DNA of 64,000 nt, from positions 1-64,000 of the IMG/VR virus record IMGVR_UViG_2526164702_000004; one strand, 5' to 3'. Shown piece by piece: positions 44,280 through 59,434 of this stretch. Made by a program: the position numbers and the translations under genes. The stretch comes from a virus (Duplodnaviria > Caudoviricetes). The notes below the pieces were generated by a model that searched no databases, had not been told where the DNA came from, and worked only from the letters and a program-made list of their open reading frames with translations. Every line of letters begins with the position of its first letter. Position 1 is the stretch's first letter.

Positions 44280-45668
44280 ATGTCTACGTTCTTTGCTCTC
44301 GTAATTTTATTTGTTCTATTCTGTTTCCCGTTTCTATTATATTTCTATTACAAAAAAGTAAAACAATTCAATGAGCTATATAATAAGTATAAAGATATTA
44401 TTGATTTAGAAAAACATAAGTCAAATGTCATTAACGAGACCGATGATTTGATACGCGAAAGGAATCGCAAACTGAATGAAATACAAGTAGAGATTGATCA
44501 ACTAAGAAAAGATTATTTAGAAAAAAGACAATTATTTGAAAACCTAATTCGTGAAGTCGCAATTTATGAAGACAAGTCTGAGATTATAAGTCACGGTTTG
44601 TATAAACCTCATTTTGACTTTGATACTTCAGACGAATATAAAGAAGCACTTTTAGAGATAAGAGAATCTTGTAAAGAGATGATTAAATCCGAGACAGCAG
44701 CATCTGCTTCAGTTGCTTGGCATGTAAACGGAAGTTACACAGAAGGGAAAAAACAAACAAAACATTATATTAAGTTAATGCTCCGTGCATTTAATGGCGA
44801 ATGCGATGCAATGATCGCTGATGTACGTTGGAATAATATCTCAAAAATGGAAGAACGAATAGCTAAGGTTCATGATGCGATAAATAAATTAGGTGAAACA
44901 CATTATATAAAAATTACAAACGATTACTATAGGTTAAAACTACAAGAATTACAACTTACTCATGAATATAGAGATAAAATTTATCAAGAAAAACAGGAAC
45001 AAAAGAGGATCCAAGAACAAATTCGTGAAGAAGAAAAGGTTCAAAGAGAAATTGAAAAGGCGTTAAGAGATTCAGAAGACGAAGAAAAACGATACACTAA
45101 GGCTTTGGAACAGGCAAAAAAAGAACTGGAAAAAGCCCAGGGCGAACAGTTGCAATTGGTCCAAGCAAAAATGGAAGCTTTGCAAAAAGAATTAGAGAAT
45201 GCACAAAGCGCAAAACAAAGAGCCTTATCTTTAGCCCAACAAACAAAAGTAGGGCATGTATATGTAATATCTAATATAGGTTCGTTCGGAGAAAGTGTAT
45301 TTAAGGTGGGGATGACACGGCGATTAGATCCAATGGACCGTGTAAAGGAATTAGGAGATGCGTCTGTTCCGTTTGAATTTGACGTTCACGCAATTGTTTA
45401 TTCTGAAAATGCGCCTGAACTCGAAAAATTGCTTCATAAAAACTTTGATCATAAAAGAGTAAACCTTGTAAACAACCGAAAAGAATTTTTTGAAATTACT
45501 CTGGATGAGATAGAGCAAATTGTAAAAAAACATAATGGTGATGTGCAATTTACAAAAGCAGCTGAAGCAAGGGAATATCGAGAGTCTATGAAAATTAAAT
45601 TAAATCGTCAAAATACAAATGTATCTACAATGTCAAATGTCTTAGACTCCATACCGCAAAGTATATAG
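44280..45668 (+). CDS. membrane-anchored DUF4041 / T5orf172 GIY-YIG nuclease (PD-lambda-1/SNIPE-like)
   Basis: N-terminal TM; LMLRAFNGECD; GHVYVISNIGSFG...KVGMTRR; SVPFEFDVH. Confidence 0.85.
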   Translation: MSTFFALVILFVLFCFPFLLYFYYKKVKQFNELYNKYKDIIDLEKHKSNVINETDDLIRERNRKLNEIQVEIDQLRKDYLEKRQLFENLIREVAIYEDKSEIISHGLYKPHFDFDTSDEYKEALLEIRESCKEMIKSETAASASVAWHVNGSYTEGKKQTKHYIKLMLRAFNGECDAMIADVRWNNISKMEERIAKVHDAINKLGETHYIKITNDYYRLKLQELQLTHEYRDKIYQEKQEQKRIQEQIREEEKVQREIEKALRDSEDEEKRYTKALEQAKKELEKAQGEQLQLVQAKMEALQKELENAQSAKQRALSLAQQTKVGHVYVISNIGSFGESVFKVGMTRRLDPMDRVKELGDASVPFEFDVHAIVYSENAPELEKLLHKNFDHKRVNLVNNRKEFFEITLDEIEQIVKKHNGDVQFTKAAEAREYRESMKIKLNRQNTNVSTMSNVLDSIPQSI

Positions 45669-45761
45669 AAAACGATAAAATCTATTATGAAACTTATCGG
45701 AAAGTTTGCAGTTTCGAAAGTGAGAATTAGAGAAATACACTTGTAACAATTCAAACCATAC

Positions 45762-46157
45762 CTACTTTAAAAACGTTTCGATAATCGTCTTAATTTTCTT
45801 TAAGTCTTCTGGCTGTATCTTTACAAGTATCTCTGCAATCTCGCATAATGTAGGATTATTAATAATCTTACGGGATAGTATGATCCCTTTTTCAATCAGT
45901 TCTTTTTCTGCTTCTGTTACATTCAAAGGAGTTGTATTCTTTTCGGGTCCTATTCCTTTGTGTGTCCACTCTTTTCTAAATCCATACTTTAGTTCGATTA
46001 CGATAGTAATACGATCAGTCAAATCCCGTTTATTATTCTCGAGCTGACTTAAGAGCTCCTGACTGATTCCAATCGATTTCGCAAATTCGTCCTGGCTGAT
46101 TTTTTGCCCGGTTCCCTCTGTTCGTATGTATTTGATTCTTTCGCCTGGTGTGTTCAA
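45762..46157 (-). CDS. CI-like repressor
   Basis: ISQDEFAKSIGISQELLSQLENNKR; divergent from cro. Confidence 0.85.
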   Translation of the reverse strand: MNTPGERIKYIRTEGTGQKISQDEFAKSIGISQELLSQLENNKRDLTDRITIVIELKYGFRKEWTHKGIGPEKNTTPLNVTEAEKELIEKGIILSRKIINNPTLCEIAEILVKIQPEDLKKIKTIIETFLK

Positions 46158-46259
46158 ATAAATATTTCTCTTTAATAAAATTTACTTGTAAAATATTGCA
46201 TTGTAATACATGGTCATCCCAGCAATTAAGCACCACAACGCACTGACAGGAGAGATAAA

Positions 46260-46505
46260 TTGAGCGTCGCAAAAAATCAAGGGCGAATTTGGCCCAAAGG
46301 TGTTATGTCCCGTGAAGAGATTAAGACGGAGCTGCAGTTTTTAAATAAAACTTATGATGTGATTTCTCACGAAACAGGAATGTCGTACGACGTTGTCCGC
46401 GGAACGATTGCGGGAAGAAAACGAAATGCCGTCGTTCTTCAGTATCTTACGAATCTTGGCATCGATCACGGAAGAACCCCAAGCCCGAGCCGCAAGGCAA
46501 GCTAA
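46260..46505 (+). CDS. Cro-like HTH protein
   Basis: ISHETGMSYDVVRGTIAG; divergent from cI. Confidence 0.7.
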   Translation: MSVAKNQGRIWPKGVMSREEIKTELQFLNKTYDVISHETGMSYDVVRGTIAGRKRNAVVLQYLTNLGIDHGRTPSPSRKAS

Positions 46506-46560
46506 GTAATATTAGAAAAACATAAAACGCTTCGTGGGTTCCCGACACACAGAGGCAACG

Positions 46561-46737
46561 ATGGAAAATTCGCAGAACAGAGAGATAGAAAAAATTGAAT
46601 ACTTTTGGCAGTACAACAAGCACGGAATACAGCGGCCATTGTGTAGGGTACTGGCATTGTATCAGTGTGCTTATCTTCGGTACATGATCGATTGGTTCAG
46701 GCCGCTGGAAGTAAGAGAGAAAGTAGTAAGGACTTGA
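46561..46737 (+). CDS. small hypothetical early protein
   Basis: GAGG SD before ATG 46561; its stop overlaps the TTG of the first bridging ORF. Confidence 0.5.
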   Translation: MENSQNREIEKIEYFWQYNKHGIQRPLCRVLALYQCAYLRYMIDWFRPLEVREKVVRT

Positions 46738-46776
46738 GAGATTTACGGGATATAGCAAAGATGGAATTGAGAGATG
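46725..46776 (+). repeat. 52-bp leader, exact copy at 47121-47172
   Basis: agtaaggacttgagagatttacgggatatagcaaagatggaattgagagatg. Confidence 0.92.
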
Positions 46777-47031
46777 GCAATAGAAAAGAAATTGATAACG
46801 GAAGCAATAAAGCGACGTCGTCAAAATATGGACACAGAGGCGGCGGATCGAGAAATGCTTATTCAGTATATTCGTCAATTCGTGGATTCGCAACGTGGGA
46901 ATCAAAAACTTTTAGCCGAAGCAAGCTCTATTCCTCAGAACAAAATATCCAGTTTAATACGGGAGCGCAGCTTTTCACCCGGAATGGATACGATCATAAA
47001 GCTTGCCGAAACAATACAAAATATCCAGTAA
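46774..47031 (+). CDS. array HTH 1 (helix QNKISS)
   Basis: RGNQKLLAEASSIPQNKISSLIR..SPGM. Confidence 0.85.
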   Translation: MAIEKKLITEAIKRRRQNMDTEAADREMLIQYIRQFVDSQRGNQKLLAEASSIPQNKISSLIRERSFSPGMDTIIKLAETIQNIQ

Positions 47032-47073
47032 GTGGATATTATTTACTTGACTTATATCCATCTTGTGGATATT
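47020..47073 (+). promoter_or_regulatory. operator pair/promoter after HTH1: ATATCCA-N5-TGGATAT x2
   Basis: Sites 33 bp apart; TTGACT at 47047. Confidence 0.85.
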
Positions 47074-47169
47074 TAATCCCTCACAACAATACCCCAACCC
47101 TTAACCAAACAAGCGAAAGAAGTAAGGACTTGAGAGATTTACGGGATATAGCAAAGATGGAATTGAGAG

Positions 47170-47412
47170 ATGAAAAATATACACGATGTGATAACCAACC
47201 GAAAGAATTGTCTTCGGTCGGAAGCCGAAGAGAAAGAATATCTAATCGATTATATCCGGAAGTTTGTCGATGCCAAAAGGGGAAATCAAAAACTTTTAGC
47301 GGAAGCAAGTGGCATTCGTCAGTCAACAATCTCCAATCTAATACGCAATGCAGGACCATCGCCCGGAATGGAAGTCATCATAGCTCTTGCCGAAGAAATT
47401 CAAAAAATTTAA
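47170..47412 (+). CDS. array HTH 2 (helix QSTISN)
   Basis: Paralogue of HTH1. Confidence 0.85.
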   Translation: MKNIHDVITNRKNCLRSEAEEKEYLIDYIRKFVDAKRGNQKLLAEASGIRQSTISNLIRNAGPSPGMEVIIALAEEIQKI

Positions 47413-47459
47413 AGTTTAAATATTTAAATCTTGACAAATATTTAATTTTTAAATATATT
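47404..47459 (+). promoter_or_regulatory. operator pair/promoter after HTH2: ATTTA-N5-TAAAT x2
   Basis: TTGACA 47431-N17-TATATT 47454. Confidence 0.85.
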
Positions 47460-47465
47460 CCCCAC

Positions 47466-47576
47466 AACAATACCCCGATCCTTAACCAAAATATGGCCGC
47501 ATCTTTGTGCGCTCATGCAGTGTGAACTTTGTGTTGAGAGATTTAATGAGTGTGATAACAATGGAATTAAGAGATG
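47466..47576 (+). repeat. ~110-bp cassette leader; near-identical copies at ~47882-47992 and ~48307-48417
   Basis: caataccccgatccttaaccaaaatatggccgc...ggaatt(a/g)agagATG. Confidence 0.92.
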
Positions 47577-47831
47577 GCCACGAAAAAAGAAATGATCGAT
47601 CAGGCAATAGAACGCCGACAGCACTGTTTGAATACAAGCGAATCGGATCGTGCGCTTATGATAGAATATATTCGGGAATTTGTAGAACTGAAACGCGGAA
47701 ATCAAATTCTACTCGCACGGGAGAGTGGAATTCCTCAGTCCAAGATTTCGAATCTTCTCAATGGAACCGGCACATCTGCAGGAATGGAGACGTTGGTAAT
47801 CCTCGCACTTGCTGTAAAAAATATAACGTAG
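47574..47831 (+). CDS. array HTH 3 (helix QSKISN)
   Basis: Paralogue. Confidence 0.85.
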   Translation: MATKKEMIDQAIERRQHCLNTSESDRALMIEYIREFVELKRGNQILLARESGIPQSKISNLLNGTGTSAGMETLVILALAVKNIT

Positions 47832-47875
47832 CGTTATGTTTTTGCCTTGACAAATATATCGCTCAGGTATATATT
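47820..47875 (+). promoter_or_regulatory. operator pair/promoter after HTH3: AATATAAC-N5-GTTATGTT and AATATATC-N5-GGTATATA
   Basis: TTGACA 47847-N17-TATATT 47870. Confidence 0.8.
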
Positions 47876-47989
47876 AATCCCCACAATACCCCGATCCTTA
47901 ACCAAAATATGGCCGCATCTTTGTGCGCTCATGCAGTGTGAACTTTGTGTTGAGAGATTTAATGAGTGTGATAACAATGGAATTGAGAG

Positions 47990-48262
47990 ATGGCAAAAAA
48001 AGAAACGAAAGAGCAATCAATCGAAGAGATTATTGCACACAGGCGGAACTGTCTGGACACGGAAGAGTCAGACAAGGAAGCACTGACGGAGTACGTTCGC
48101 CAGTTTGCAAAAGCGAAGAGGGGAAACACAATTCTTCTTTCGCGCGAAAGTGGAATTCCTCAGTCCAAAATATCGAATCTATTAAACAAAACAGGATCAT
48201 CTCCTGGAATGGAAACTTTAATCATTCTTGCTCAAACTATAAAAAATATACCAACTCGGTAA
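47990..48262 (+). CDS. array HTH 4 (helix QSKISN)
   Basis: Paralogue. Confidence 0.85.
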   Translation: MAKKETKEQSIEEIIAHRRNCLDTEESDKEALTEYVRQFAKAKRGNTILLSRESGIPQSKISNLLNKTGSSPGMETLIILAQTIKNIPTR

Positions 48263-48300
48263 CATTTTTAATTGACAAATGTACCAAGCCGGTATATATT
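48245..48300 (+). promoter_or_regulatory. operator pair/promoter after HTH4: TACC-N5-GGTA x2
   Basis: TTGACA 48272-N17-TATATT 48295. Confidence 0.85.
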
Positions 48301-48414
48301 AATTCCCACAATACCCCGATCCTTAACCAAAATATGGCCGCATCTTTGTGCGCTCATGCAGTGTGAACTTTGTGTTGAGAGATTTAATGAGTGTGATAAC
48401 AATGGAATTGAGAG

Positions 48415-48678
48415 ATGGCAATAGAAAAAGAAACGATCGATCAGGCAATAGAACGCCGACAGCACTGTTTAGATACAAGCGAATCGGATCGTACACTTAT
48501 GATAGAATATATTCGGGAATTCGTAGAACTGAAGCGTGGAAACCAAAGACGTCTTGCAGAAGCAAGCAGTGTTCCGGAATCCAGAATATCCAATCTCTTA
48601 AAAAATACCGGTGTCAGTCCGGGGATAGAAATAATACTTATCCTTGCCCAAAATGCAAAAAAGTTATTATCGCAATAA
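48415..48678 (+). CDS. array HTH 5 (helix ESRISN)
   Basis: Paralogue. Confidence 0.85.
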   Translation: MAIEKETIDQAIERRQHCLDTSESDRTLMIEYIREFVELKRGNQRRLAEASSVPESRISNLLKNTGVSPGIEIILILAQNAKKLLSQ

Positions 48679-48714
48679 CTTTTTATCTTGACAAACTTAA
48701 TAAAACAATAAGTT
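48661..48714 (+). promoter_or_regulatory. operator pair/promoter after HTH5: AAGTTATT-N5-AATAACTT and AACTTAAT-N5-AATAAGTT
   Basis: TTGACA at 48688; the -10 is non-consensus. Confidence 0.8.
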
Positions 48715-48743
48715 TTATTCCTTACAATACCCCGACCAAAAAT

Positions 48744-48768
48744 AAAAAAGCCCGGCGGCAACCGGGCT
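48744..48768 (-). terminator. intrinsic terminator oriented against the operon
   Basis: A6 followed by GCCCGG-N6-CCGGGC on the + strand. Confidence 0.55.
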
Positions 48769-48851
48769 CCGAGGTAAACTTACGTTTAACACCTAAGCGT
48801 TTTTTATCTCCTCTTTTATTTGCGGTCAACCAAAAAATTTAGGAGATACCT

Positions 48852-49046
48852 ATGACCCCAAGATACTACCTGTCAGACCGTGCCCGGATTGCGTTTGAAT
48901 GTTTCGAGATCCGCAACGGATACAAACCAAACCACAAAGAGCAAGTTGAGATATTGCGAAACGAAGGGTTTAACCCGGCAACAATTGCTTTTTTTATGCA
49001 ATGTGTTCACACAACTCCCAGGCATTCCAGTGAGGTGTTCGCATGA
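48852..49046 (+). CDS. small hypothetical early protein
   Basis: AGGAGA SD; 64 aa. Confidence 0.6.
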   Translation: MTPRYYLSDRARIAFECFEIRNGYKPNHKEQVEILRNEGFNPATIAFFMQCVHTTPRHSSEVFA

Positions 49047-49091
49047 AGGCATTGATAAAAATCAAACAAAGTCCGATAATGGATAGGAGAC

Positions 49092-49352
49092 ATGTCGAAG
49101 AAAGAGACGATAAAACAAATTATCGAACACAGACGGAAGTGTGTGGATACAGAAGAGTCAGACAAGGAAGCGCTGACAGAATATATTCGGGAATTTGCAA
49201 AAGCGAAGAGGGGAAATACAATTCTTCTTTCGCGCGAGAGTGGAGTTCCGGATGCCAAAATCTCAAACCTGTTAAATCAAAGTGGATTCCCTCCAGGAAT
49301 GGAAATAATTTTAAAGCTTGCCGAAACAATACAAAAACTACAAAATCTATAG
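49092..49352 (+). CDS. array HTH 6 (helix DAKISN)
   Basis: Paralogue; AGGAGA SD. Confidence 0.85.
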   Translation: MSKKETIKQIIEHRRKCVDTEESDKEALTEYIREFAKAKRGNTILLSRESGVPDAKISNLLNQSGFPPGMEIILKLAETIQKLQNL

Positions 49353-49388
49353 ATTTAGTCCTTGACAATTCTACAGAAACTATAGCTT
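49335..49388 (+). promoter_or_regulatory. operator pair/promoter after HTH6: CTACA-N5-TATAG x2
   Basis: TTGACA at 49362; 33-bp spacing. Confidence 0.8.
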
Positions 49389-49391
49389 ATA

Positions 49392-49593
49392 GCACCTCAT
49401 ACAACTTAGGAGGTGCTATATGAAACAGTTGAGTGAATCAACTCAGTTTCCGATAATGGATGAGAGACATGTCGAAGAAAGAGACGATAAAACAAATTAT
49501 CGAACACAGACGGAAGTGTGTGGATTCGGAGCAAGAACACCGCGAAGCGTTAATAGAATACATTCGAGAGTTTGTGCGGGCGAAACGCGGGAA
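49392..49593 (+). repeat. ~200-bp leader plus 5' HTH repeat, copy 377 bp downstream; 25-bp core also at 50146
   Basis: gcacctcatacaacttaggaggtgc... direct comparison. Confidence 0.9.
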
Positions 49594-49729
49594 CACAGCT
49601 TTACTTACTCAACAAACCGGCATTCCCGGATCACGAATATCCCATCTTGTAAACAACACAGGCCGTCCTCCTGGAATGGATGGACTCCTAACTTTAGCCG
49701 AAGCAATAACAAAACTGCACAAAGTGTAA
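49469..49729 (+). CDS. array HTH 7 (helix GSRISH)
   Basis: Paralogue; start set at MSKK by analogy with HTH6. Confidence 0.85.
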   Translation: MSKKETIKQIIEHRRKCVDSEQEHREALIEYIREFVRAKRGNTALLTQQTGIPGSRISHLVNNTGRPPGMDGLLTLAEAITKLHKV

Positions 49730-49765
49730 ATTTATTCCTTGACAATGTTGCACATTGTGCAACAT
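49712..49765 (+). promoter_or_regulatory. operator pair/promoter after HTH7: TGCA-N5-TG(C/T)A
   Basis: Perfect ATGTTGCA-N5-TGCAACAT; TTGACA at 49739. Confidence 0.85.
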
Positions 49766-49845
49766 TCTGCACCTCATACAACTTAGGAGGTGCTATATGA
49801 AACAGTTGAGTGAATCAACTCAGTTTCCGATAATGGATGAGAGAC

Positions 49846-50106
49846 ATGTCGAAGAAAGAGACGATAAAACAAATTATCGAACACAGACGGAAGTGTGTGG
49901 ATTCGGAGCAAGAACACCGCGAAGCGTTAATAGAATACATTCGAGAGTTTGTAGAACAGAAACGAGGAAACACAGTTCTTCTTTCACAACAAACAGGAAT
50001 TCCAGTTTCGCGTATCTCCAATCTGGTCAACAACTCTGGCCGACCTCCGGGCATGGACGGACTTCTAACGCTTGCGGAGGTAATTCAAAAAGTACACAAT
50101 GTTTAG
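49846..50106 (+). CDS. array HTH 8 (helix VSRISN)
   Basis: Paralogue; 5' half identical to HTH7. Confidence 0.85.
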   Translation: MSKKETIKQIIEHRRKCVDSEQEHREALIEYIREFVEQKRGNTVLLSQQTGIPVSRISNLVNNSGRPPGMDGLLTLAEVIQKVHNV

Positions 50107-50142
50107 ATTTATTTATTGACAAAAATAAACATTGTGTAGATA
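50089..50142 (+). promoter_or_regulatory. operator pair/promoter after HTH8: consensus TACA-N5-TGTA
   Basis: TTGACA at 50116; one mismatch per site. Confidence 0.7.
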
Positions 50143-50173
50143 TTCGCACCTCATACAACTTAGGAGGTGCAGC

Positions 50174-50311
50174 GTGAACCCCGACACAGACCACCAAATG
50201 GACGCACTACGTAATATCGTCCAACTATCTCAAGACGTGCAGGCTGTCCGTAACTGGATTGATGCGAGTGAGCAAATTGCAGAAACCCCGTTAACCGAGG
50301 TGGAGCAATGA
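50174..50311 (+). CDS. small hypothetical early protein (45 aa)
   Basis: AGGAGG SD, GTG start; stop-start overlaps at both ends. Confidence 0.55.
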   Translation: MNPDTDHQMDALRNIVQLSQDVQAVRNWIDASEQIAETPLTEVEQ

Positions 50312-50356
50312 ATTGCTTGAGTAAAATCTTAGAAATTCCGAAAATAGGAATAACAC

Positions 50357-50635
50357 ATGTCTTTAACAGACGAACAAATAAAAAAGACGATTCCCGCAAT
50401 TATTCGTCAAAGACGAGAGAGTATCTCAAGAGAAGACATCGACAAACAGATGTTAGTCGATTATATCCGATACTTTGTCAATTTAAAACGTGGAAATGCG
50501 GCTCTTCTTGTAAAGGAGACAAAATTTCCTTCTGGAAATTTATCTCGTCTTATTTCCGGCGAGGGTGCTCAACCGTCCTTCGAGCGAATTCTTTCTATCG
50601 CCGAAACTGTTCAAATTCTGCTAAAAAAGCAGTAA
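50357..50635 (+). CDS. array HTH 9 (helix SGNLSR, most divergent)
   Basis: LVDYIRYFVNLKRGNAALL; AGGA SD. Confidence 0.8.
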   Translation: MSLTDEQIKKTIPAIIRQRRESISREDIDKQMLVDYIRYFVNLKRGNAALLVKETKFPSGNLSRLISGEGAQPSFERILSIAETVQILLKKQ

Positions 50636-50671
50636 TAATTCTTGACAAAAAACCTTCTATAATAGCAGTTT
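50615..50671 (+). promoter_or_regulatory. operator pair/promoter after HTH9: CT(G/T)CT-N5-AGCAG
   Basis: TTGACA at 50642; spacing is 36 bp rather than 33. Confidence 0.55.
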
Positions 50672-50699
50672 TCTTTTGCTGCTTTAAGGAGGCATTGTC

Positions 50700-51017
50700 A
50701 TGACATTCAAAGAAGATCAGCAAATGAGCCAGTTAAAAAAACTCATTAGTGAGTCCTCGATAAGCTTGTTGTCTTTGTCGGTTAACGGGATCTCACTTGA
50801 TGACGTTATGCGCGTGGAAAAACAAAAACAGAACGTAAAAGAATCTCGTGCCCGTCTCCGTGCTTTGTTTGTGAGTTACAGACAGACAATCAGGTATCTC
50901 AAAGGGCAAGTCAAAGAGCGTGATGAGGCACTCATGGTGCTCCGTGCGGAGACGGATGCAATGGCGGACGTGATTACGGACATCAAAAAATCGTACGGCT
51001 TCAAGGCGGTGGTGTGA
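50700..51017 (+). CDS. coiled-coil hypothetical protein
   Basis: AAGGAGG SD. Confidence 0.6.
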   Translation: MTFKEDQQMSQLKKLISESSISLLSLSVNGISLDDVMRVEKQKQNVKESRARLRALFVSYRQTIRYLKGQVKERDEALMVLRAETDAMADVITDIKKSYGFKAVV

Positions 51018-51826
51018 TGGAAGAAAATTCAATTGTAAGAGCAGATAATCCTGTTGAGCAGATGCGTCGGGCGACTGATGTCGCTGGTGCGTGTCGTGAG
51101 ATAGTGAACCGAACCGTGCAAGAAATCCAGGGTAAAAAATACATTAGAGTTGAGGGTTGGCAGGCAATATGTAACGCTCACGGTTGTGCGGCCTCGTCTG
51201 GATCTGTAGAGAGAGTCGAGGGTGGATTTCGCGCAATTGGTCAGATCCGTAGGCGATCAGATGGTGTCGTGATTGCCGAGGCAGAGGGCTTCATTGGTGA
51301 CGACGAAAGTTCTTGGAGTGGTAGGCCAGAATACGCAAAAAGAGCAATGGCCCAAACCCGAGCGATTTCACGGGCTTGTAGATCTGCATTTGCGCATGTT
51401 GTAGTATTAATAGACGAAAATCTATTGACTACACCGGCTGAAGAAGTTCCGGCATCGGACGCGAATCCCTCAGCCGAAACTTCAAAAAAATCTAATACAA
51501 CTAAACCTACTGAAGTATCGCCCGAAACTCCTATCGGAAAACCGGCCTCAAAAGAACACAAGGAAGCGTTTTTTAAGACTAACGGTAAAGCGACGTTTAT
51601 CTCGAATTTTGGAGTTGAGATACTCAAGATCGACGGCACGTATCTCTACGTTCCAGTCGGTAGTTATAAAAAGCAGCAGGCTGGACAACCGATCGATTTA
51701 ACGCCTCCAGCGAGTTCGCCTAAAACCAACTCGGAAAAACCTGTCAATGGAACGGCTACTGAACTCGCTGGAGTAGGGGCAGGAACAAAGCCGGCTGTCA
51801 GTGATGACGAGGAGGATTTATTCTAA
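51014..51826 (+). CDS. putative single-strand annealing recombinase (Rad52/Sak-like)
   Basis: KKYIRVEGWQ...AMAQTRAISRA; Pro/Ser-rich tail with acidic C-terminus DDEEDLF. Confidence 0.55.
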   Translation: MMEENSIVRADNPVEQMRRATDVAGACREIVNRTVQEIQGKKYIRVEGWQAICNAHGCAASSGSVERVEGGFRAIGQIRRRSDGVVIAEAEGFIGDDESSWSGRPEYAKRAMAQTRAISRACRSAFAHVVVLIDENLLTTPAEEVPASDANPSAETSKKSNTTKPTEVSPETPIGKPASKEHKEAFFKTNGKATFISNFGVEILKIDGTYLYVPVGSYKKQQAGQPIDLTPPASSPKTNSEKPVNGTATELAGVGAGTKPAVSDDEEDLF

Positions 51827-52341
51827 TGGCTGCACTCGCAACATTCAAACTATTCGAACTCAACGATCTGTATTATCAGACACTCTACTCCGCGATTAAT
51901 CCGGACACGGGTGAAATTGTAGATGAGGTTCTTGCGGAGAAGTTGAACGAGATCGTTGAAGCAAAGGAAAAGAAACTCCTCAATCTTGGGTGCATATATT
52001 GCGAACTCGAACTTGAGGCAGCAGCTTTAAAATCAAAAGAAGCCAATCTTAAAAAGAGGAGAGAGGCCCTTGAAAAAAGGTATAAGAGCCTTTTAAGATT
52101 TATTAAAGCTAATCTGCAAGAGGGGACTAAACTCAAAGACGATCGAGTTAAGCTCTATTGGCGCAAAAGCGAATCCTTGGATGTAAAAATACCTGATAAT
52201 CAACTCCTTACCGTACTCGGCGAAGAGTTTACAAAAATTGAATATAGCCCAATGAAAAATGAACTCAAGGCTGCTATTAAATCAGGGAGATCATTTAAGG
52301 GTGTCGAGTTAATAGAGAATCAAAATCTACAAATAGATTAA
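51826..52341 (+). CDS. siphovirus Gp157-family protein
   Basis: Coiled coil; KLYWRKSESL; LKAAIKSG...GVELIENQNLQI. Confidence 0.85.
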   Translation: MAALATFKLFELNDLYYQTLYSAINPDTGEIVDEVLAEKLNEIVEAKEKKLLNLGCIYCELELEAAALKSKEANLKKRREALEKRYKSLLRFIKANLQEGTKLKDDRVKLYWRKSESLDVKIPDNQLLTVLGEEFTKIEYSPMKNELKAAIKSGRSFKGVELIENQNLQID

Positions 52342-52351
52342 GGAGCTATGC

Positions 52352-52525
52352 ATGGATAATCAAAAGAGAGATAGAATTAGAATTTTGAATCAATACGACG
52401 CGCTCTTTGATGATAAGTGTGATGAATCATTGGATGAGGTCACTCACATCATTGCAGGACTTATAGAGATCGACGAAGACCTAATTCGTCAGACCGTCCT
52501 CGAGAGATGGTACGAGGCCGCATAA
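52352..52525 (+). CDS. small hypothetical protein (57 aa)
   Basis: AAGGAG SD. Confidence 0.5.
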   Translation: MDNQKRDRIRILNQYDALFDDKCDESLDEVTHIIAGLIEIDEDLIRQTVLERWYEAA

Positions 52526-53349: not shown

Positions 53350-53658
53350 ATGATTGCGGATACGCAAAACGAACACATAAATAGTATATTACAAAAACAT
53401 AAATTTAAACAAGTTAGGCCGAACGAATGGAATTTTGTTGGAACTGTATATACGAAGATGGCTTTAAAATACGGGACAATGGAATTTCATCACGTTGATC
53501 TTTGTAGTAGTATAACAATAAATATTGGTGATCAGATTATAATCAAAAAAAACAACTCTGTTGTTTTTGTAACGGATAGCCTGGATGACCTCGATAGTTA
53601 TCTAAACAATACTCTCTATCTGACTTCGCCTATGCAAAATACAGAGTGTGTTGTATGA
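53350..53658 (+). CDS. hypothetical protein
   Basis: ORF with SD. Confidence 0.5.
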   Translation: MIADTQNEHINSILQKHKFKQVRPNEWNFVGTVYTKMALKYGTMEFHHVDLCSSITINIGDQIIIKKNNSVVFVTDSLDDLDSYLNNTLYLTSPMQNTECVV

Positions 53659-54734
53659 ATGCCGTTCCTCGTAGAGTTCCACGTCCCAATCGGCCCGAGG
53701 GATCTTCTTATGCTGTTGTTGATTTTAATGTTGTTAACGGATTCGGACTGACAGACGGAGAGAAAATAATTTTTTCGCTGATTCACAATCTTAGTAATCG
53801 GAAGGAAGGGTGTACTGCAACTAACGATTATTTTGCGAGACTATTAGAGAGGTATAACCCGTACGAAAAAGATTCTGAAAAACTTTTGGCGGAAAAAACG
53901 AAAGCTGAAAAAGCCATTTCGGCCTCTATCTCAAGGTTAGCAAAAAAGGGTGCGATAACAGTCAGGCTTTTAAAAACAAAAAACGGGACAAGTCGGTTTA
54001 TTTTTTCTAACGTTCGAATCATCAAACCCACTCCACAAAATATAGACCCGGGTCCACAAAATGTGGAAGACCCCCCACAAAAAGTAGAGTGGGGTCCACA
54101 AAATATAGAGTGCATGCACTCCACAAAATGTGGAGCAGATATTAAAGGGGATAATAAACTAGATAGTACAAAGAAAGAAAAAGAGGTTTCTTCTGAAACT
54201 ATTACATTTGTAAACGTTTACGAAAAAACAAAAGAGCTTCTCGCTTCGAGGAATATCGAATACGTTCATACTGTTGGAAAAGAAACCTCTGCTTTAAATT
54301 GGTTTATGACTTCTGGTCTTTCGGCTGATAAGATTATAGAGGTTGTATCTAATCTTATACGGATCAAAGAGTCTAAGGAATTCAAAGACGATCTTAAATT
54401 TTGGAAACCGATTCCGATCACAATTGCATCTGCAAAATCTTATTACGAAAAAATACAATCAACTATAGTCGCGCTAAAGCCGCCATCCTCGGAACGACCA
54501 ACACAAACTAATCACCAACCAGATTTTGAATACTTCGAGGATTATATTCAGGCACAAAAAATATCACCGACAACAAAACAGTTTATCCTAAGTGCAAAAT
54601 CACCGGAGGAGTATTACGATCCAAATTCGACAAACCCTAAAATTACATATGCGAAATCATTTTACGAAACATTCAAAAAATCTAAACAAGACAAAGGGGA
54701 GCCATGCAAGTTCAAACGGCCAACAGCAGCATGA
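53646..54734 (+). CDS. lambda O-like replication initiator
   Basis: N-terminal wHTH (CTATNDYFA...ISASISRLAKKG); internal iterons. Confidence 0.75.
   Translation: MCCMNAVPRRVPRPNRPEGSSYAVVDFNVVNGFGLTDGEKIIFSLIHNLSNRKEGCTATNDYFARLLERYNPYEKDSEKLLAEKTKAEKAISASISRLAKKGAITVRLLKTKNGTSRFIFSNVRIIKPTPQNIDPGPQNVEDPPQKVEWGPQNIECMHSTKCGADIKGDNKLDSTKKEKEVSSETITFVNVYEKTKELLASRNIEYVHTVGKETSALNWFMTSGLSADKIIEVVSNLIRIKESKEFKDDLKFWKPIPITIASAKSYYEKIQSTIVALKPPSSERPTQTNHQPDFEYFEDYIQAQKISPTTKQFILSAKSPEEYYDPNSTNPKITYAKSFYETFKKSKQDKGEPCKFKRPTAA
54033..54133 (+). repeat. five CCACAAAA iterons (lytic origin candidate)
   Basis: Starts at 54033, 54054, 54075, 54096 and 54121 (21-bp period; last interval 25). Confidence 0.8.
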
Positions 54735-58286: not shown

Positions 58287-58592
58287 TTGAGAATGAAAGG
58301 AAGAAGAAAATATTCGCCGGAGTTTCGGGAACAAGCAGTAAACCGGACGTTAAATGGATCGTTTACAATAAAAGAAGTAGCAGAGTCCTTAGGAGTTAGC
58401 TACTTTGTATTGAGACAATGGAAGGCCGAGCATTTGAAAAAGAAGGAAACAGAGCAACCACTTCCGGATAAACAGCTAAAGGAAAGCGAAGAATTGAAAA
58501 GACTTCGTAAAGAGAATGTGAGATTAAAGGATGAAAACGCGATCTTAAAAAAGTTTGCGGCCATGCTTTCCCGCGAACAGAATCCCGATTGA
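58287..58592 (+). CDS. IS3 OrfA (HTH)
   Basis: RKYSPEFREQAV...EELKRLRKENVRLKDENAILKK. Confidence 0.92.
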   Translation: MRMKGRRKYSPEFREQAVNRTLNGSFTIKEVAESLGVSYFVLRQWKAEHLKKKETEQPLPDKQLKESEELKRLRKENVRLKDENAILKKFAAMLSREQNPD

Positions 58593-59434
58593 AGTTCATG
58601 AAATCGAATTGCTTAGAGCATAGTATAGGGAGCATGGCAAGAGTTTTAGGAGTATCTCGATCAGGATATTATAAATATCTAAACCGTCATAAAGATCGGT
58701 CAGTTGCTCCTGACCTTACGAATTTTCTCCAAGAGAAGTGGCTTAAAAGTCGTAAGAATTACGGTTTTAAACGTCTCTTTCAGGAAGTGAAAAAGTCGAA
58801 TCTTCCCTATGGAGCGAGGAAAGTTCGAAAAGCGATGAAACACTGTAAAATTAGCGGGAAACAGAGGAAGCAGTTTAGACCTTTGACAACGAATTCAAAA
58901 CACGGGGGTAGAATTGCTCCTGATTTAGTTCAAAGGAAATTTCATCCGAACGAGCAGAACCGAATTTGGGTGTCTGATGTTACATTCATTCGGACTTCGT
59001 TTGGTTGGAGTTATCTTTGTGTGATTTTGGATCTGTATTCACGCAAGACAGTGGGTTGGTCGCTTTCCGATCGTAATGATTCTCAGTTGGTATGTGATAC
59101 GGTATTAAAAGCAGTGTTGTCAAGAAACCCTCGGAAAGGATTGATCTTTCATTCGGATCGGGGTTCTAATTTCTGTTCTAAAGAAACACGTAGACTACTA
59201 ATTGCCAATGGTATCAGACGAAGCAACAGCAGAAAAGGAAATTGTTGGGACAATGCGGTGGCAGAGTCTTTCTTTAGTTCTCTAAAAAGAGAAATCGAAT
59301 ACAATACATTCTATAACATTGAAGAAGCGGAGCATCTTCTATTTGATTTTATCGAAGTGTATTACAATAGATTCAGGTTTCATTCTACATTAGGTTATAT
59401 GAGCCCTGAAGAATTTGAGACAAATATTGCTTAA
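58589..59434 (+). CDS. IS3 OrfB DDE transposase
   Basis: WVSDVT, FHSDRGS and DNAVAESFF. Confidence 0.95.
   Translation: MKFMKSNCLEHSIGSMARVLGVSRSGYYKYLNRHKDRSVAPDLTNFLQEKWLKSRKNYGFKRLFQEVKKSNLPYGARKVRKAMKHCKISGKQRKQFRPLTTNSKHGGRIAPDLVQRKFHPNEQNRIWVSDVTFIRTSFGWSYLCVILDLYSRKTVGWSLSDRNDSQLVCDTVLKAVLSRNPRKGLIFHSDRGSNFCSKETRRLLIANGIRRSNSRKGNCWDNAVAESFFSSLKREIEYNTFYNIEEAEHLLFDFIEVYYNRFRFHSTLGYMSPEEFETNIA

Follow-up and report, generated by a model that had tools for sequence, protein, structure and literature searches.

The stretch of DNA analysed here (64,000 nt, referred to as the window) belongs to a complete 77-kb LE4/lcp3-like Leptospira plasmid-prophage, which carries nine paralogous helix-turn-helix (HTH) genes in series between a cI/cro-like switch and the genes for recombination and replication. 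The switch comprises a cI-like HTH repressor gene (45762-46157, minus strand; 131 aa; PHROG transcriptional regulator/repressor families), divergent from the early operon, and a cro-position gene (46260-46505, plus strand; 81 aa; PHROG 7494, without a function label), which is first in the early rightward operon and keeps its position in all related loci. The cI-like protein is identical in five related plasmids (RefSeq WP_001095807.1, "helix-turn-helix transcriptional regulator"). The array genes and the chained ORFs described below lie on the plus strand. A small ORF with a Shine-Dalgarno sequence (SD; 46561-46737; 58 aa), whose start and N terminus are conserved in 7 loci, is the first link of a chain of coupled ORFs. 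Two other links lie within the array: a 64-aa gene (48852-49046; PHROG 7667, without a function label) that splits it into two sub-arrays, and a 45-aa ORF (50174-50311; PHROG 25937; PHROG 6874 positions 1-44) that duplicates the N terminus of the gene after the array and is a recombination scar. The first post-array genes are coupled to the chain and encode a 105-aa protein (PHROG 6874), a 270-aa protein (PHROG 19042) and a Mu Gam-like/Gp157 end-protection protein (50700-52341); the replication initiator gene (53646-54734) lies 3' of these.

An earlier, sequence-only reading of the window had described nine paralogous HTH genes of about 85 aa between cro and the recombination genes. These are present and encode XRE-type proteins of 80-92 aa that are 36-88% identical and belong to PHROG 2136 (without a function label): gene 1 (46774-47031; 85 aa; helix IPQNKISSL; PHROG 2136, E 2e-35), gene 2 (47170-47412; 80 aa; IRQSTISNL; HTH_3, 30.4 bits, above the Pfam cut-off), gene 3 (47574-47831; 85 aa; IPQSKISNL), gene 4 (47990-48262; 90 aa; IPQSKISNL; a type found only in this window), gene 5 (48415-48678; 87 aa; VPESRISNL), gene 6 (49092-49352; 86 aa; VPDAKISNL), gene 7 (49469-49729; 86 aa, alternative start 49460; IPGSRISHL), gene 8 (49846-50106; 86 aa, alternative start 49837; IPVSRISNL) and gene 9 (50357-50635; 92 aa; FPSGNLSRL; the terminal type in related arrays). 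An AlphaFold model of a cassette HTH protein (pLDDT 84.7) places the recognition helix at residues 55-62; its closest folds are SinR, Aca11, C.AhdI/C.Esp1396I, HipB and P22 c2, all dimers that bind palindromes. Close gene pairs differ by 228 synonymous and 153 non-synonymous changes, with codon position 3 the most variable, which indicates that the HTH genes are under purifying selection.

Each gene is followed by a control region, likewise on the plus strand, in which a palindrome (O1) is centred exactly 17 bp before a TTGAC(A/T) hexamer (9/9 units). O1 has variable arms of 7 nt around a 5-nt spacer, is flanked by AA/TT, and contains the stop codon of the upstream HTH gene in 9/9 units. Its half-sites recur in a second copy (O2), which is centred 33 bp from O1 and 16 bp downstream of the hexamer in 8/9 units, in the spacer between the -35 and -10 elements. 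Control region 1 (47021-47075) contains O1 at 47021-47039 (ATATCCA-N5-TGGATAT), TTGACT at 47047, O2 at 47054-47072 and the -10 element TATTTA. The next three share the -10 element TATATT: region 2 (47405-47459; O1 47405-47423, TTGACA 47431, O2 47438-47456, ATATTTA arms), region 3 (47821-47875; O1 47821-47839, TTGACA 47847, O2 47854-47872, ATATA[ATC]C arms) and region 4 (48246-48300; O1 48246-48264, TTGACA 48272, O2 48279-48297, AT[AG]TACC arms). Weak -10 elements are found in region 5 (48662-48716; O1 48662-48680, AGTTATT arms, TTGACA 48688, O2 48695-48713, ACTTA[AT]T arms), region 6 (49336-49390; O1 49336-49354, TTGACA 49362, O2 49369-49387, CTA[CT]A arms) and region 7 (49713-49767; O1 49713-49731, TTGACA 49739, O2 49746-49764, TTGCACA-N-TGTGCAA). 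Region 8 (50090-50144; O1 50090-50108, TTGACA 50116, O2 50123-50141, TA[CA]ACA arms) has GATATT. In region 9 (50616-50670; O1 50616-50634, CTGCT-N-AGCAG, TTGACA 50642) O2 is displaced to 50652-50670, 36 bp from O1.

This geometry, including the overlap with the stop codon and the exceptional last unit, had been given correctly in the sequence-only reading, and its list of half-sites was essentially right; its 8-bp arms are better described as seven variable nucleotides within the conserved flanks. Of the -35/-10 pair that it assigned to every unit, the hexamer holds throughout, and good -10 elements are confined to units 1-4 and 8. The promoter of unit 9 is doubtful because TTGACA stands only 10 nt from TATAAT, leaving no properly spaced pair. 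When units were scored for self-complementarity of O1 and O2 and for shared half-sites (maximum 28), the nine reached 19-28, with unit 1 at 28; 72,505 other genome positions, scored with identical geometry, gave a mean of 8.5 (sd 2.2, maximum 22). Operator pairs of this kind occur only at the array sites among the 33 plus-strand TTGAC[AT] sites, and the nine-unit geometry is far beyond chance. No further good operator copy was found in the 77-kb genome; the only evident targets of each protein are therefore the O1 and O2 next to the gene that encodes it. The 18 loci contain 51 unique control regions, in which cTTGACAA is given as invariant (unit 1 of this array has TTGACT) and variable cores lie within a conserved operator frame, AA..T...A..TT.

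Operator cores and recognition helices vary together. Helix positions 1-3 and 6 are the most variable columns of the protein, and base 5 of the half-site can be predicted from residue 6 in 23/25 types (Asn-A, His-G, Arg-G, Ser-C, Thr-T; permutation P<5e-5, a value not corrected for shared ancestry); for residue 1 and base 3, P=4.5e-4, with the same restriction. A switch within one clade (GSR-H with TGCA vs GSR-N with TA[TAC]A) follows the pattern, and the covariation appears chemically sensible. Types 3 and 4, which occur in one array, have almost identical half-sites, so the operator set is not fully orthogonal.

Comparison of 18 related elements showed that the array is not invariant: it holds 1-9 cassettes (one in L017-L019), in combinations that are nearly always different, and at least 25 operator specificities occur among elements that often have an identical cI-like protein. 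Cassette order is mostly collinear and permuted in some elements. O1 and O2 always travel with the C-terminal (HTH) half of the upstream gene, a linkage that recurs up to 12 times for one C-terminal half, whichever N-terminal half or following cassette it is combined with; one hybrid (L001:575) joins the N-terminal half of type 2 to the C-terminal half and operators of type 1. Arrays have been reshuffled between related phages, and none of the 95 cassettes is decayed. The proposal of modular cassettes in series is strongly supported by this variation, by the co-travelling operators and by the covariation. The range of one to nine cassettes, together with the permuted order in some elements, disfavours a strictly ordered form of the timing cascade that was offered as an alternative.

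The frame -1 to the HTH genes is kept open. Across 54 unique genes none of its 4772 codons is a stop, whereas the other frame has 383; when the nine genes were shuffled synonymously, 45 stops arose on average (minimum 28), and 0/237 control windows from other genes were stop-free. With 62 synonymous vs 319 non-synonymous changes in close pairs, its amino acids are unconstrained. The resulting bridge ORFs begin with one of 254 aa over cassettes 1 and 2 (46761-47525), starting at an ATG 13 nt 5' of gene 1. GTGA overlaps lead from it into bridge ORFs 3 (47522-47941; PHROG 8220), 4 (47938-48366) and 5 (48363-48842), the last of which ends within the SD that serves the 64-aa gene. ATGA overlaps occur at each end of bridge ORFs 6 (49043-49423), 7 (49420-49800; SD AGGAGGTG; leader hairpin) and 9 (50308-50703), whereas bridge ORF 8 (49797-50177; SD AGGAGGTG) has ATGA and then GTGA. 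Strong SDs precede bridge ORFs 6-9; the HTH genes are without them. Altogether 14 ORFs are chained from 46561 to 52341, and in the 18 loci 79/79 bridge stops fall in ATGA or GTGA overlaps or inside the following gene's SD. In an environmental phage, a distant single-copy relative shows 9 stops in the corresponding frame. The stop-free bridging frame, which the sequence-only reading of the array left out, belongs integrally to each cassette. Bridge ORF 5 also contains a terminator-like structured region (48747-48812, no strand assigned; z -3.9), formed by a GC hairpin with a minus-strand T-run and then a weaker plus-strand hairpin with a T-run.

We consider it probable that each cassette works autonomously as an internal early promoter gated by its own repressor, that conflict between related prophages has diversified the cassettes and that they are carried on a translated bridge. 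The small XRE-type protein, probably a dimer, has its last codons and stop inside its own O1; O2, about three helical turns further on, fills the spacer of a predicted sigma70-type promoter whose -35 element TTGACA lies between both sites. Joint binding of O1 and O2 would most likely shut this promoter, which would otherwise fire rightward into the next cassette and on to the recombination and replication genes. Related prophages exchange, duplicate, delete and recombine cassettes at two conserved joints, the mid-gene KRGN codons and the leader directly past the -10 element, giving rise to one to nine cassettes and at least 25 specificities; such a range suggests that related elements have been selected through cross-regulation of one another, as immunity or escape. 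A superinfection arms race, as proposed in the sequence-only reading, is plausible as a candidate role, and the earlier interpretation is in sum partly supported. Ribosomes probably cross the array uninterrupted from one stop-to-start junction to the next, and into the flanking genes, so that inserted cassettes would not be polar on the downstream early genes. Several observations count against repressor-gated promoters: the -10 elements of units 5-7 are poor and unit 9 lacks a properly spaced pair; types 3 and 4 nearly share a half-site; the operators of one natural hybrid (L013:4659) are asymmetric, which is not explained by a simple homodimer model; the last T of the unit 1 -10 element is substituted in some relatives; and, as each repressor is encoded upstream of the promoter that it would shut, the first cassette's promoter would be unrepressed with P_R off. 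The last point conflicts with RT-PCR data for lcp3, in which phage genes were reported as silent until mitomycin C induction (PMC4338851).

This paradox disappears if each HTH protein instead switches on its downstream promoter, so that array expression driven by P_R amplifies early transcription stepwise and the lysogen stays silent. Such a relay would work at any array length, agrees with the lcp3 data (PMC4338851) and would suit the weak -10 elements of units 5-7. C proteins, among the closest folds, activate from a distal site. It is nevertheless improbable, since O2 in the 17-bp spacer, overlapping the first -10 bases, occupies the classical position of a repressor, and a perfect TTGACA in all 51 variants with good -10 elements in units 1-4 and 8 should make an activator unnecessary. 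Somewhat unlikely, in our estimate, is neutral accretion, by which single cassettes are functional and arrays are by-products of unequal homologous recombination, their number and mix without function; they would be tolerated because each cassette is complete in itself and polarity is prevented by the bridge frame. The single-cassette elements, joints in conserved sequence blocks, the mostly collinear order predicted by unequal crossing-over and visible scars (the duplicated 45-aa N terminus, hybrid genes) all favour it, but it leaves unexplained the many specificities among elements with the same cI-like protein, and why every cassette keeps its operators, its gene under apparent purifying selection and its open bridge frame.

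Two further alternatives concern what the palindromes and the bridge frame encode. That the palindromes are RNA hairpins (terminators or attenuators at gene ends) is extremely unlikely: O1, bounded by an A-run and a T-run in the manner of a bidirectional terminator, does extend over the stop codon, but the AT-rich stems contain 0-3 G-C pairs, a terminator scan had no match at O1 sites, the half-sites recur in O2 with other spacers and at a constant DNA distance from the -35 element, and half-site bases covary with recognition-helix residues. Nor is it at all likely that the -1-frame ORFs are true nested genes with functional proteins; the long-open frame, the strong SDs of bridge ORFs 6-9 and annotation by gene callers in some records (PHROG 8220) would fit, yet amino acids change freely, the composition is rich in Ser, Arg, Asn, Lys and Thr, bridge ORFs had no Pfam or NCBIfam match, and the ORFs cross operators and promoters, where DNA function dictates the sequence. 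In the literature, no description was found of serial repressor-operator-promoter cassettes overprinted by a stop-free frame. One more reading gives the sites a stoperator-like role: O1 and O2 could mainly halt RNA polymerase elongating from P_R, with promoters secondary, and resident HTH proteins would block the early operon of an incoming relative that shares one cassette type. All sites do follow one another between P_R and the essential early genes, a tight tetramer could form on a pair of sites with 33-bp spacing, the diversity is compatible with conflict, and weak HTH translation signals on long bridge-translated transcripts could spare the element's own lytic transcription. We assign this roadblock a low probability, because the invariant TTGACA exactly between the sites is left unexplained and HTH protein production in lysogens lacks support; moreover, stoperators block in an orientation-dependent manner, whereas the palindromic O1 and O2 would not.

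The virus record is 76,984 bp long, carries direct terminal repeats and has a completeness rating of complete; the window is its first 64 kb. Its relatives are circular plasmid-prophages of pathogenic Leptospira, namely lcp3 (L. interrogans Linhai 56609), pLiSL5, pLiSL11, pLiSL21, pLiSL34 and pLiSL40, Langkawi p2, strain 782 p5 and L. mayottensis p2, together with ten IMG/VR contigs. Tailed particles are released by lcp3 after mitomycin C treatment (PMC4338851), and this element has been placed in the LE4-like group (PMC4338851; PMC6078989). The array (46725-50703) is situated within the rightward early operon. It is flanked on the left by a divergent cI-like HTH gene (45762-46157, minus strand), which is separate from the cassette genes, and by a gene in the cro position (46260-46505), and on the right by genes for a Mu Gam-like/Gp157 protein (51826-52341) and for a replication initiator (53646-54734). 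In the relatives, the array is followed by genes for ERF, a PD-(D/E)XK nuclease, an SbcCD-like protein or an ATPase. One cI-like protein (WP_001095807.1) is common to five of the related plasmids. Just upstream of the cI-like gene, a 462-aa DUF4041 protein (44280-45668, plus strand) matched the PD-Lambda-1 anti-phage defence model (PADLOC, E 6e-173) and looks like a prophage-borne defence gene in moron position; in relatives its place is taken by other cargo (PIN-like/DUF433, ImmA/IrrE, ankyrin). A transposase-like ORF (PHROG 157, E 2e-95) is present in the early operon downstream of the replication genes (58589-59434, plus strand).

The sequence-only reading had described nine paralogous HTH genes of about 85 aa. 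Nine were found, encoding single-domain proteins of 80-92 aa, all read in the direction of the early operon. A PHROG scan covered four of the nine, and all four matched PHROG 2136 (function unknown) over essentially its full length (84-88 of 89 profile positions; E 1e-30 to 1e-39). With the Pfam gathering cut-off of 23 bits for HTH_3 (PF01381), only the protein of unit 2 passed (30.4 bits); units 1, 3, 4, 5 and 8 scored 15-22 bits and units 6, 7 and 9 gave no HTH_3 match. An AlphaFold (AF2) model (pLDDT 84.7) contained a long N-terminal helix (residues 2-39), a helix at 43-51, a recognition helix at 55-62 and a C-terminal helix at 71-84. The top Foldseek matches were all XRE-type HTH proteins (probability 0.9-0.99, TM about 0.5-0.6, with weak E values of 0.17-1), the nearest folds being SinR, Aca11, C.AhdI/C.Esp1396I, AcrIIA15, HipB, HigA2, DdrO and P22 c2; a profile search of PDB sequences likewise returned weak XRE-type matches only (3bs3, SinR, Stl, Aca11). 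As modelled, the proteins have a predicted XRE-type HTH fold that includes a recognition helix. Changes among close pairs (228 synonymous, 153 non-synonymous) show purifying selection on the HTH frame. The family is narrow: a search of 1.84 billion proteins gave only 28 representatives at E≤1e-3, and it comprises 57 clusters at 90 % identity, of which all that bear a source name are from Leptospira. No matches were obtained by blastn and tblastn against the phage collection, from which near-identical records may be left out, no conserved stretch usable for a search of related loci by alignment of the nine proteins, no confirmed relative by a genome-contig scan with protein 6, and nothing by PADLOC and NCBIfam for the array proteins or the proteins of the overlapping frame described below.

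Each gene is followed by TTGAC(A/T), which is bracketed by two palindromes. The first of these (O1) contains the stop codon of the gene in all nine units, as had been proposed, and its centre lies exactly 17 bp upstream of TTGAC(A/T) in 9/9 units. The second copy with like half-sites (O2), which the sequence-only reading had placed 33 bp further on in eight units and 36 bp in the last, was recovered with just this spacing: its centre is 16 bp downstream of TTGAC(A/T) in eight units and 19 bp downstream in unit 9. On a score combining symmetry and the sharing of half-sites, the nine units reached 19-28 of 28, against a mean of 8.5 (sd 2.2, maximum 22) for the same geometry at 72,505 positions elsewhere in the genome. 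Among the 33 plus-strand TTGAC[AT] sites, only those of the array carried such palindrome pairs, and a search of the whole 77-kb genome for extra operator copies yielded chance AT-rich near-matches and none that was credible. All 51 unique control regions contain cTTGACAA without change, and around cores that vary they keep the operator frame AA-N2-T...A-N2-TT. With the stop codon inside the operator, the parts of each cassette would be physically welded.

The further claim that every unit has its own promoter is partly supported as a prediction. In a σ70-type promoter the -35 and -10 hexamers are 16-18 nt apart; a consensus scan gave full σ70-like matches in units 2, 3 and 4 (11/12 each) and unit 8 (10/12); units 5-7 have a weak -10, and in unit 9 the spacing is wrong, TATAAT being located just 10 nt past TTGACA.

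For a comparison across relatives, an HMM built from the nine window proteins was used, which identified 95 cassettes in 18 loci, with one to nine cassettes per array. Far from being invariant, the arrays differ in composition in nearly every element. Cassette order is mostly collinear and is permuted in places; for example, cassettes C6 and C7 occur as C6-C7 in three related loci (L001, L003, L004) and as C7-C6 in two others (L007, L011). Each C-terminal half of the protein (from RGN to the end) is always accompanied by its same O1 and O2, up to 12 times and regardless of the flanking sequence, while N-terminal halves are swapped independently. In this way, gene 2 of lcp3 and gene 6 of the window have a common C-terminal half and different N-terminal halves, and a cassette at L001:575 combines a type 2 N-terminal half with a type 1 C-terminal half and type 1 operators. 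Because C-terminal halves stay with their operators while N-terminal halves move on their own, there are two joints, one at the invariant KRGN codons and one in the leader that directly follows the -10. The proposal of modular cassettes accumulated in series is supported by these differences in content and by the movement of operators with the upstream HTH half. The functional unit would be the HTH half, O1, the -35, O2 and the -10, in that order, and the predicted ligand of each operator pair is accordingly the product of the gene upstream.

Several irregular cassettes were also noted. Six loci (L002, L007, L008, L011, L014 and L016) have a second sub-array about 500 nt past the main one, which is absent from the window; it consists of two or three more divergent cassettes with helices TST-R, KTA-H/GSV-H/PPV-H and LGT-T and with a leader type of its own, the O1/-35/O2 plan being unchanged. 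A natural hybrid at L013:4659-4922 joins a type 5 recognition helix to a type-7-like tail, and both of its operators are asymmetric chimeras (half-sites ACTTATT and TTTACA), O2 being inverted relative to O1. Operators of this kind are hard to reconcile with a simple homodimer; the cassette may have arisen by recent recombination or may hint at heterodimers. Apart from the HTH genes, the only small ORFs inside the window array encode 64 and 45 aa. The latter (50174-50311), located before cassette 9, is a copy of the first 44 residues of the post-array gene at 50700-51017 (PHROG 6874) and is a recombination scar, which shows that cassette 9 came in with part of its former neighbour.

Variation within the proteins is greatest at positions 1-3 (residues 55-57) and 6 (residue 60) of the recognition helix, in the loop at 63-68 and in the tail. 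With shared ancestry left in the test, helix residue 6 predicts base 5 of the half-site in 23 of 25 helix types (permutation P<5e-5), the pairings being Asn-A, His-G, Arg-G, Ser-C and Thr-T. Helix residue 1 is likewise associated with base 3 (P=4.5e-4, shared ancestry again left in; Gln-A, Asn/Asp-C, Glu-T). These pairings are chemically sensible, and at least one switch occurs inside a single clade, in which GSR-His goes with TGCA and GSR-Asn with TA[TAC]A.

Read in the -1 frame (the bridge), all nine HTH genes are free of stop codons, compared with a mean of 45 stops (minimum 28) in 2000 synonymous shuffles. The same frame of other phage genes contains 0.094 stops per codon, and none of 237 control windows was stop-free. 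Over 54 unique gene sequences (4772 codons), the -1 frame has no stop and the other frame 383. The bridge always runs on through O1, the -35, O2 and the -10 and ends at least 65 nt past the HTH stop. Its 79 stops in 18 loci overlap the next start as GTGA (36) or ATGA (26) or, in the remaining 17, sit 3-9 nt ahead of that start within its SD. In the window, 14 ORFs are chained in this manner from 46561 to 52341, with overlaps at 11 of 13 junctions, so that the predicted chain is laid out as a translationally coupled operon. The SDs of bridge ORFs 6-9 match those of real genes in quality; the HTH starts have merely GAGAG or GAGAC abutting the ATG. Automatic annotation by PGAP calls the bridge ORF and not the nested HTH genes in lcp3 (LIL_RS25145, L002 6243-7013) and pLiSL11 (FH593_RS21620, L018 5265-5720).

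As a protein, the bridge is not conserved. Its changes are 62 synonymous and 319 non-synonymous, Ser, Arg, Asn, Lys and Thr are abundant in its predicted products, a Pfam scan gave no match, and the sole match of its ORFs is PHROG 8220, which appears to have been built from bridge-ORF calls. The feature under selection is openness and not a protein. A distant homologue on an environmental phage contig (L020:1340-1700; single copy, 106 aa, upstream of an ERF gene) has TTGACA within its last codons and one palindrome (AGTAAAC-N6-GTTTACT) over its stop, followed by TAATAT; the gene itself belongs to a coupled chain, and its bridge-equivalent frame contains nine stops. The weld between gene end and promoter thus predates the Leptospira arrays; the bridge frame does not, and is a derived feature of the Leptospira cassettes. 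That the open frame is a by-product of the codon content of the family is ruled out by the synonymous shuffles and by the nine stops of this homologue. A programmed frameshift from the bridge into the HTH frame was also rejected, as the bridge is open over the whole gene and a stop in the HTH frame lies just upstream of the ATG.

Of the leaders and regions tested for RNA folding, significance was reached only by leader c, whose hairpin sequesters the SD, and by the region that follows unit 5; leaders a and b had no significant structure (z +0.6 to -0.2), and an Rfam scan of 45500-52500 returned sub-threshold noise only. The region at 48747-48812 is strongly structured (z -3.9), with a GC-rich hairpin and minus-strand T-run followed by a weaker plus-strand hairpin and T-run. 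It separates two sub-arrays, is crossed without interruption by bridge ORF 5 and could be a translation-sensitive terminator. The sequence after the -10 in units 1-5 (47876-47910 and equivalents, at the start of leaders a and b) is conserved, C-rich and G-poor (CCCCACAA(CAA)TACCCCGATCC...). This putative element is similar to sites at which Rho loads, and such a site would be in keeping with translation having to be continuous.

The position of O2 over the spacer and first -10 bases, that of O1 at about -52 over A/T tracts, and the perfect -35 argue for repression. An UP element would lie where these tracts are, and a pair of dimers on one DNA face would most likely clamp the -35. On this view, every cassette provides a strong early promoter inside the operon, which is shut by the protein of the gene immediately before it. 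Such a repressor-gated design would function with any number and order of cassettes and would give a self-limiting boost of early transcription after infection or induction; a strict inverter chain was dropped because arrays vary in length and order. The most plausible role of the bridge is to retain ribosomes on the long early transcript over about 4 kb, where HTH genes are poorly initiated and where weak O1 hairpins and the terminator-like structure at 48747-48812 occur, and its translation would spare the recombination and replication genes from polarity. Dimerisation, repression and translation of the bridge are what we infer from these arrangements.

The main difficulty lies in the lysogen. 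If P_R, the early rightward promoter of the cI/cro-like switch, is off, the protein of the first cassette is not made and the promoter of that cassette should be open; yet the phage genes of lcp3 were reported to be silent before induction (PMC4338851). Leaky expression, activation in place of repression, or non-productive cassette transcripts are possible answers. One form of the last, in which transcripts from cassette promoters are translationally dead owing to the leader-c hairpin, was considered and set aside, the likely start lying in the 5′ arm of the hairpin. The many specificities among elements that often share one cI-like protein are as cross-regulation between relatives would select, and this diversity fits the idea of immunity and escape put forward in the sequence-only reading. 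Tentatively, and with more doubt than confidence, the array may be viewed as a combinatorial second-tier immunity barcode of Leptospira plasmid-prophages and a library of near-orthogonal repressor/operator/promoter parts, whose DNA is decoded in two ways: on lytic transcripts, a coupled train of ribosomes on the bridge frame would carry translation across and keep HTH synthesis low, and on transcripts from cassette promoters the HTH frame would be read.

If the proteins bind as proposed, nature offers in these cassettes an evolving collection of at least 25 small repressors, each matched to its operators on a common promoter scaffold, and the sequences directly reveal covariation of single residues with single bases (Asn-A, His-G, Arg-G, Ser-C); the cassettes could then be used in studies of the evolution of protein-DNA specificity and as orthogonal parts. 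Tandem modules with a predicted repressor upstream of its own gated promoter, shuffled in an early operon among relatives with one primary repressor, are a layout that is not known to have been described for phages, and second-tier immunity between co-circulating plasmid-prophages becomes testable. The bridge is one of the rare clear instances in which an open frame is selected and its protein is not, with a bearing on how mobile modules avoid polarity in operons and on the origins of overprinted genes; a frame kept solely to stay open and repeated with each module would, if true, count among genetic elements as a new type.

The searchable literature, including papers on Leptospira plasmids and phages, yielded no account of such an array. 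The parts themselves (XRE-type repressor, palindromic operator pair and σ70 promoter) are classical. Their assembly is not: a regulator gene whose stop codon fuses it with the operator of a promoter pointing away, up to nine such modules in tandem besides a cI/cro switch, modular shuffling at two joints, and a chained, overprinted frame that is unconstrained in sequence. Integrons likewise carry small self-contained modules in tandem arrays that vary, with an imperfect palindrome at the end of each module, and their cassettes have attC sites with a conserved core that are used with an integron integrase. Here, cassettes are bounded by homologous joints, one at KRGN in mid-gene and one in the leader. 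The palindromes differ by type and occur twice, around a promoter, with AA/TT flanks as their sole common part and no attC-type conserved core; no integrase was found near the array.

Nested phage genes such as Rz/Rz1 and the A/B and D/E pairs of phiX174 provide precedents for one gene wholly inside another on the same strand and in a different frame, both products being functional, but in the cassettes the outer frame is stop-free without amino-acid conservation, is repeated in each cassette and is chained stop to start. In cluster A mycobacteriophages, stoperators are many repressor sites spread along early and lytic units and are tied to immunity specificity and its diversification. The distribution of repressor sites along the transcription units of a temperate phage is shared; however, stoperators are many identical asymmetric sites for one monomeric repressor, whereas the predicted repressors here are numerous and each has a private pair of palindromic sites.

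Aca repressors, likewise small HTH proteins of phages, act through inverted repeats to silence a strong early promoter, and Aca11 is among both the sequence and the fold matches. Aca genes, however, lie downstream of the promoter and of the acr genes they repress; in the cassettes the operators are at the 3′ end of their own gene, the polarity of operator-gene linkage is opposite, the genes are arrayed, and a known acr partner is lacking, the small array ORFs being those of 64 and 45 aa. The C proteins C.AhdI and C.Esp1396I, which are among the best structural matches, are XRE-type dimers of about 80 aa that act as two dimers on two palindromic boxes per promoter. Their C-boxes adjoin each other upstream of the autoregulated C gene, in contrast to the arrayed sites here, which are separated by 33 bp, lie at the gene's 3′ end or beyond it, move with the upstream gene and are predicted to control downstream DNA. 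No R-M genes are present in the operon, and PADLOC gave no controller match for the array proteins.

Lambdoid immunity modules (CI/Cro, P22 c2) resemble the cassettes in their small or modular HTH dimers, in palindromic operators over the -35 and -10 elements of early promoters, in specificities that are diverse between related phages and in the swapping of modules by recombination; P22 c2 is among the nearest folds. A λ-type CI has two domains, with C-terminal oligomerisation and S24 autocleavage, and is divergent from the lytic promoter, whereas the cassette proteins have no C-terminal oligomerisation/S24 domain and are encoded upstream of, and overlapping, the presumed promoter, in place of the divergent or downstream position of lambdoid regulators. 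In the Leptospira elements, two sites 33 bp apart flank the -35, and up to nine unidirectional modules stand in tandem besides a separate cI/cro-like switch.
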